Positions 7,899 to 38,860 of a stretch of DNA of 64,000 nucleotides are shown here, piece by piece. Origin of the DNA: Octopus sinensis (Eukaryota); contig NC_043003.1 of assembly GCF_006345805.1 (NCBI RefSeq), positions 90,396,001 through 90,460,000 of the forward strand. The letters are read 5' to 3'. Under the pieces are notes generated by a model. The model made no database searches, was not told the DNA's origin, and saw only the letters and a list, made by a program, of their open reading frames with translations. A program made the translations under genes and the position numbers. Each line of letters begins with the position of its first letter. The stretch's first letter is position 1.

Positions 7899-38860
<30,962 letters not shown>

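Follow-up and report, generated by a model that had tools for sequence, protein, structure and literature searches.

Textbooks credit the L45 loop with setting which Smad a type I receptor selects. A BMP type I receptor gene of Octopus sinensis was read from its sequence alone as having lost four residues of this loop, and the locus raises the question of whether, and by what route, such a receptor still passes a BMP signal to Smad1/5. The window considered here, the whole stretch of DNA that was analysed, has a length of 64,000 nucleotides.

Structure of the Receptor Gene

The public annotation calls the gene merely BMPR1B-like. The matching protein record (P0001) has 510 residues, is named BMP receptor type-1B(-like) and is assigned to both Octopus vulgaris and O. 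sinensis. Residues 88-510 of this record are the stop-free translation of nine exons at 7899-38860, all of them AG/GT-ended, and at least one additional coding exon, for the ectodomain, lies about 1.4-1.6 kb upstream of the window start. Matches to the Pfam families Activin_recp, TGF_beta_GS and kinase are all above cut-off, so the type I receptor domain set is present, and the protein has the Cys-rich ectodomain, single transmembrane helix, GS box and Ser/Thr kinase of the type I architecture. The sequence-only reading regarded the gene as kept intact, and the nine open exons with their GS box and C-terminal NANDOR-type box agree with this. The features are listed below.

7899..8019, + strand: exon for the second half of the ligand-binding domain, with the Cys knot box (CC..CN); P0001 residues 88-128, Activin_recp match 33-113
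9795..9903, + strand: exon for the transmembrane helix; helix 135-175 in the AlphaFold2 model
16464..16587, + strand: exon with the intact GS box; TGF_beta_GS match 188-212
19953..20145, + strand: exon for the glycine-rich loop, VAVK lysine and alphaC helix, from its translation
26582..26761, + strand: exon for beta4, the shortened L45 loop, beta5, hinge and alphaE, with I272L, H320F and T328A; from the alignment and a presumed RNA contig
26590..26619, + strand: L45 site, with a deletion of four residues, either TGSW (after 26607) or GSWT (after 26610); from the alignment with human BMPR1B
28142..28247, + strand: exon for the catalytic loop HRDIKSKN and DLG, with A360C two residues past the DLG glycine; splice joint seen in a contig
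33620..33795, + strand: exon for the activation segment, P+1 loop and alphaF, from its translation
33669..33671, + strand: Leu382 codon, from the alignment with 54 non-cephalopod BMPR1
37124..37254, + strand: exon for the kinase C-lobe, from its translation
38729..38860, + strand: last coding exon, with the NANDOR-type box and stop, from its translation

Elsewhere in the window, a broken LINE-type retroelement occupies 57993-60955, with a reverse transcriptase and a weak PHD match at 59289-60440 (Pfam) and a weak endonuclease match, below cut-off, at 57993-58418. Open frames at 63158-64000 resemble a transposase fragment by eye, and 63158-63502 is without a Pfam match.

The Four-Residue Deletion and Its Age

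Positions 26590-26619 read GCT GCT GAT ATC AAA GGT ACA CAG CTA TAT, in frame within the exon at 26582-26761. Alignment with human BMPR1B (PDB 3mdy) opens a gap of exactly four residues, loss of TGSW and loss of GSWT being equivalent placements, and the full-length BMPR1-type loop (ADIKGTGSWTQ) is thus four residues short. A deletion by microhomology between the two Thr codons would fit the sequence. Contigs from four runs of the 24 listed, belonging to four studies, were placed on 26300-28280; two of the runs are DNA and two are presumed, as a guess, to be RNA. Contigs of all four runs cover the exon without insertion, that is, without the 12 extra nucleotides by which the sequence-only reading would have recognized an assembly error. 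The two presumed RNA contigs have zero differences from the exon, and one of them is spliced from 26761 to 28142 at GT..AG. Since contigs lose rare variants, a rare long-loop allele could go unseen in such material. A search of both flanking introns (+ strand, three frames) found no alternative long-loop exon. Run X11, the more distant of the DNA runs, differs at 1 exon base out of 180, by a missense change, and at 36 of 758 flanking intron bases (Fisher p=0.005); such low exon divergence relative to the introns is as expected under purifying selection.

The short loop is also present in five protein records, namely P0001, its isoform P0004, P0002 of O. bimaculoides, P0005 of Argonauta hians and P0003. 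The last is 80% identical to the octopus protein and, judged from this distance only, may be a squid or cuttlefish sequence. Occurrence in Octopus, in Argonauta and in the sister sequence P0003 makes the deletion older than the Octopus-Argonauta split and than an earlier split as well. A fragment search brought up no additional BMPR1 from cephalopods; identity peaked at 71%, and the four-residue gap was absent from all 83 rows that were parsed out of 120. In P0002 the GS-box exon and the last exon are replaced by unrelated sequence, which looks like a gene-model error. The in-frame loss noticed at the outset is confirmed by the contigs of 4/4 runs and by the five records from Octopus, Argonauta and P0003, and with the same short loop in all of these the chance that it is an assembly error or a rare allele is negligible. 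As far as sequence can tell, the locus is a real, lineage-fixed variant of a known receptor.

Rarity of the Short Loop

A near-length search gave 122 records, 117 of them non-cephalopod BMPR1 matches. The full loop is present in 116 of the 117, and the remaining one is a single residue short. The deleted columns are conserved in 54, 54, 50 and 54 of 54 aligned non-cephalopod BMPR1. Diverse type I receptors were sampled as the 150 best cluster representatives at 50% identity. Of these, 141 span the L45 region; 128 of the 141 have the canonical length, 9 are longer, 2 are short by one residue, 1 by three and 1 by four. Strong conservation of L45 length outside cephalopods, which the sequence-only reading had assumed, is therefore borne out. 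The receptor with four residues missing, P0291 of Glossina brevipalpis, also lacks a GS box, and the one with three missing, P0266, reads HCD in place of HRD. A deep L45 cut alongside an intact GS box and intact catalytic motifs was seen only in the cephalopod protein. A prior description of the deletion was not found in the literature searched, which took in few subscription papers, and receptor alignments in the supplements of cephalopod genome papers might already display the gap.

Orthology and Receptor Complement

In a tree of 41 rows (39 chosen fetched proteins and two paralogs from the same octopus genome), P0003 groups as the octopods' sister with 100/99 support, and both fall within a lophotrochozoan BMPR1 clade supported at 99/94. 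The octopus ALK1/2 and ALK4/5/7 each fall in their own clade, apart from BMPR1/Thickveins. The best PDB sequence match is BMPR1B, and the original assignment to the BMPR1 class stands on both counts. The ectodomain shares about 62% identity with that of BMPR1 from chiton and Solemya. The octopus receptor likely binds BMP2/4-containing ligands.

The genome searches found one BMPR1 (this locus), one ALK1/2 gene on C4 with a full L45 loop, one ALK4/5/7 gene on C9 with a full L45 loop split by an intron, and two type II receptors on C17. No second, full-loop BMPR1 came up when the genome was queried with the exon, the GS family, the activation exon, patterns and a whole chiton protein, in searches that score best candidates only and on a possibly incomplete assembly. 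The suggestion that the locus is a paralog beside a normal copy is thus not upheld. The single match to the pattern ADIKGTG, on C8, was rejected as a canonical paralog; its context is non-coding, and a control pattern also had one match.

Divergent TGF-beta receptor and Smad genes were seen on the small contigs C1794, C9082, C8701, C8911, C9440, C9480, C9510 and C11490. The small-contig stretches measured have no microsatellites, and CpG o/e is 0.8-1.0 in three stretches of 9-10 kb, whereas the window has 0.28. Two of the small-contig loci, L035 (C1794) and L016, have introns of 23-33 bases. Short introns are a dicyemid trait, and those of the small-contig genes match it. These genes probably belong to a parasite, such as a dicyemid, in the assembly. 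The receptor-like loci on C1794 and C9082 were put aside as probable contaminants, the stretches read being free of microsatellites and the C1794 introns measuring 26-33 bases; a receptor-like locus on C6303 was set aside as a probable contaminant after a cursory look.

Kinase Conservation and Human Allele Parallels

The catalytic Lys, the alphaC Glu, HRD..KN and DLG are all present, and the GS box and catalytic motifs are intact in both cephalopod branches. The AlphaFold2 model from a 58-row alignment has a mean pLDDT of 77.5 and shows an ordinary type I receptor kinase, in which beta4 (272-276) is joined to beta5 (280-286) by a three-residue turn, at a modest pLDDT of 60-74. The invariant Asp275 is retained. 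The fetched BMPR1 and ALK5 loops differ at four positions, and the I, G and T of these are still readable in the remaining D-I-K-G-T. Identity to P0003 is 86% over the GS box and kinase and 71% over the ectodomain. The kinase still looks active.

Four substitutions at nearly invariant columns, I272L, H320F, A360C and T328A, are common to all four cephalopod rows (alignment A1). R382L occurs in the three octopod rows, the residue being Arg in 54/54 non-cephalopod BMPR1 and in P0003. P0003 has changes of its own on the short-loop background, R224K and G226A in the glycine-rich loop and G379S in the P+1 loop. Otherwise invariant P+1-loop residues are therefore altered in both cephalopod branches at different sites, R382L in octopods and G379S in P0003. 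Departures at conserved columns number 15/173, four of them from the deletion, within a range of 0-15 in the other 54 BMPR1, and the cephalopod branch is about as long as that of oyster; general relaxation is thus not demonstrated. Accelerated kinase evolution was accordingly rejected as proof of lost function, the rate being at the upper end of the molluscan range and not beyond it.

The Arg382 site lies 26 residues past the DLG aspartate. In vertebrate BMPR1B records the matching arginine stands 126 residues from the end, which is position 406 in a 532-residue form, and human BMPR1A, which we take to be 532 residues long, should have its R406 at the same site. The activation loop is described as ending with R406 (PMC6825850), and with this description added to the agreement in position, octopod R382L likely equals human BMPR1A R406L. 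Overexpression of R406L in mouse chondrocytes has been reported to raise pSmad1/5/8 and lower p-p38 (PMC6825850). By analogy, R382L would favour continued Smad output and argue against a p38 role, but it is absent from P0003.

A second parallel concerns the ALK1/2 receptor. Octopus (C4:60481235-60481315) and Argonauta (P0401) have Ser at the position of human ACVR1 Arg202. At this position 198 of the 210 GS regions parsed have Arg and 5 have Ser. In ACVR1, Arg202 bonds the beta4 residue Asp269, and the FOP allele R202I is a gain of function to which FK506 adds little (PMC3481300). The octopod Ser may bear on a hand-over to ALK2 as a lead only; among molluscs, the ALK2 GS boxes compared were those of cephalopods, and the Ser202 change may be older and unrelated. 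Octopod ALK1/2 also has Lys at the Arg375-equivalent site, as is common among the other ALK1/2 sequences seen.

Smads, Ligands, and BMP Signaling in Cephalopods

The C-terminal MH2 exon of octopus Smad1/5 ends in SSVS, and its L3 loop is identical to that of human SMAD1 (1khu). This identity speaks against the co-evolved Smad that had been suggested as a partner. The L3 regions of Smad2/3, Smad4 and Smad6/7 on large scaffolds are ordinary by inspection, Smad1/5 being the only one aligned to a reference. Ligand genes of both the BMP2/4 and BMP5-8 types are present, with BMP2 as the best structure match on C11 and BMP7/6 on C23. The last exon of the BMP5-8 gene occurs in two inverted copies with the same translation, at C23:27324471 and 27365963, about 41 kb apart, which reflect either a recent duplication or an assembly duplicate. 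BMP signalling has been reported to pattern cuttlefish limbs, Noggin being ventralizing; Noggin beads gave ectopic dorsal suckers in 8/12 cases and in 0/15 controls (PMC6581508). The word Smad does not occur in the main text of that report.

Possible Functions of the Short-Loop Receptor

The preferred reading, at a rough probability of 0.45, is that the sole BMPR1 found captures BMP2/4 ligand, docks Smad1/5 weakly and works with ALK2/Saxophone as the main Smad1/5 kinase. We infer that BMPR1 would capture BMP2/4-containing ligands and assemble a complex with the ALK2/Saxophone receptor, that its shortened L45 loop would dock Smad1/5 poorly, and that ALK2/Saxophone would perform most Smad1/5 phosphorylation. 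Such a hand-over would have freed the BMPR1 docking loop to shorten, and a loss of direct Smad1/5 engagement is plausible. The conserved BMPR1 kinase might prime the GS box of its partner, which is the weakest step. Going by the title of a 2009 paper by Liu, as cited, ALK5-driven Smad1/5 phosphorylation reportedly needs the ALK5 L45 loop, and this weighs against BMPR1 priming a partner without the loop.

Several lines of evidence favour the hand-over to ALK2. By the definition used for ACVRL1 (aa 262-270), four of nine L45 residues are gone, and single ACVRL1 L45 changes have been reported to cut BRE reporter activity (PMC10419700). The importance of L45 has been noted in a review (PMC6953019) and in other reports (PMC3341346; PMC2713245). 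The length of the loop is near-constant, the other deep cuts (P0291 and P0266) being in degenerate receptors; the Smad1/5 L3 loop is unchanged, the ALK1/2 loop is full, and BMP2/4 and BMP5-8 genes are present. Alteration of invariant P+1-loop residues at different sites in both cephalopod branches points the same way. In zebrafish, Bmpr1 and Acvr1 are both required and the Acvr1 kinase is essential, whereas kinase-dead or GS-mutant Bmpr1 rescues patterning (PMC8054026). Activation of ACVR1 by TGFBR1 through the GS box has also been reported (PMC5832415). Against the hand-over, the invariant Asp can still be present, as can I, G and T out of the four loop residues at which BMPR1 differs from ALK5; the kinase is strongly conserved with all catalytic motifs, needless for a pure scaffold, and R406L, the likely equivalent of R382L, raised pSmad1/5/8 on overexpression (PMC6825850).

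Nearly as likely is that the receptor is still a direct Smad1/5 kinase with a tolerant short loop, for which D-I-K-G-T and a phosphorylated GS box would suffice, R382L and other changes offsetting the loss. It is the only BMPR1 found in the genome, its GS box and catalytic motifs are intact in both cephalopod branches, the exon diverges little (1/180 against 36/758 intron bases in run X11), and both the R406L result (PMC6825850) and the ventralizing Noggin beads, with working BMP signalling in cuttlefish limbs (PMC6581508), are consistent with direct output. Set against this are the almost invariant length of L45 across animals, the unchanged Smad L3 partner surface, and P0003, which has the deletion yet keeps the arginine, so that R382L is not a required compensation. 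A BAMBI-like decoy or pseudo-receptor is one without a functional kinase domain, and the complete, conserved kinase of the octopus protein does not fit that description. Engineered ALK5 L45 mutants keep non-Smad outputs, and half of L45 is gone here while the kinase is intact, as a p38/JNK signaller would have it. The decoy or non-Smad role offered by the sequence-only reading is nevertheless quite improbable for the only BMP2/4-type receptor found in the genome. Limb patterning in cuttlefish involves BMP signalling (PMC6581508), and the human variant to which octopod R382L likely corresponds reduced p38 phosphorylation (PMC6825850). It is likewise very unlikely that the receptor is retargeted to Smad2/3 or a lineage-specific Smad, or escapes inhibitory-Smad control. 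L45 is a specificity element (PMC6953019) and divergent MH2 genes do occur in the assembly, but those examined lie on small microsatellite-free contigs, one with a 23-base intron, and are probably parasite DNA; the L3 regions of Smad1/5, Smad2/3, Smad4 and Smad6/7 on large scaffolds look ordinary, and the residual loop residues are BMPR1-type, not ALK5-type.

A stronger form of the preferred hand-over to ALK2 would have the sole BMPR1 of coleoids lose its Smad docking by an old L45 deletion and turn into a ligand-capturing, partner-activating subunit, with an ALK2 loosened at its FOP site (Arg202-equivalent to Ser) as the sole Smad1/5 kinase and BMP signalling always heteromeric; this appears rather unlikely. 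As the only BMPR1 found in its clade, with nearly half of L45 lost, the receptor is a natural test of loop length against a few residues in Smad docking, and also of whether BMPR1 is reducible to a ligand-capturing partner of ALK2, as the zebrafish rescues suggest. The reading of BMP gradients during limb and body patterning in cephalopods is a further matter on which it has a bearing, as are human alleles of BMPR1A R406 and ACVR1 R202, the two sites that match.

Comparison with Known Systems

The octopus receptor has the same domain order as BMPR1A/B (ALK3/6), Drosophila Thickveins and molluscan BMPR1, and its GS box and kinase are about 70-74% identical to theirs. The TM-score of the octopus model to the target is 0.89 for 3mdy (BMPR1B), and other type I kinases reach as high as 0.94. 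Unlike these BMPR1 receptors, it has an L45 loop four residues shorter, the changes I272L, H320F, A360C and T328A and, in octopods, R382L. P0291 and P0266 likewise have L45 cuts, of four and three residues, but each has lost a motif that the octopus protein keeps, the GS box in P0291 and the HRD arginine in P0266, and their branches are long and unresolved. Human BMPR1A R406L and octopod R382L likely represent one and the same substitution, Arg to Leu where the activation loop ends; the former is a single homozygous patient variant in a full-loop receptor (PMC6825850), while the latter is fixed in the octopods seen and occurs in a short-loop receptor. Activation of one type I receptor by another via its GS box, as in the relay from TGFBR1 to ACVR1, is a possible use of the octopus kinase, but TGFBR1 belongs to the TGF-beta branch, has a full L45 loop and, as donor, also phosphorylates its own Smads (PMC5832415). 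The closest likeness to the proposed arrangement, with ligand capture by BMPR1 and Smad1/5 phosphorylation by an ALK2-class kinase, is the zebrafish Bmpr1-Acvr1 complex (PMC8054026). Zebrafish Bmpr1 differs in that its loop is full-length and it can serve as a competent kinase in other contexts, whereas in octopus the bias would be fixed in the protein.
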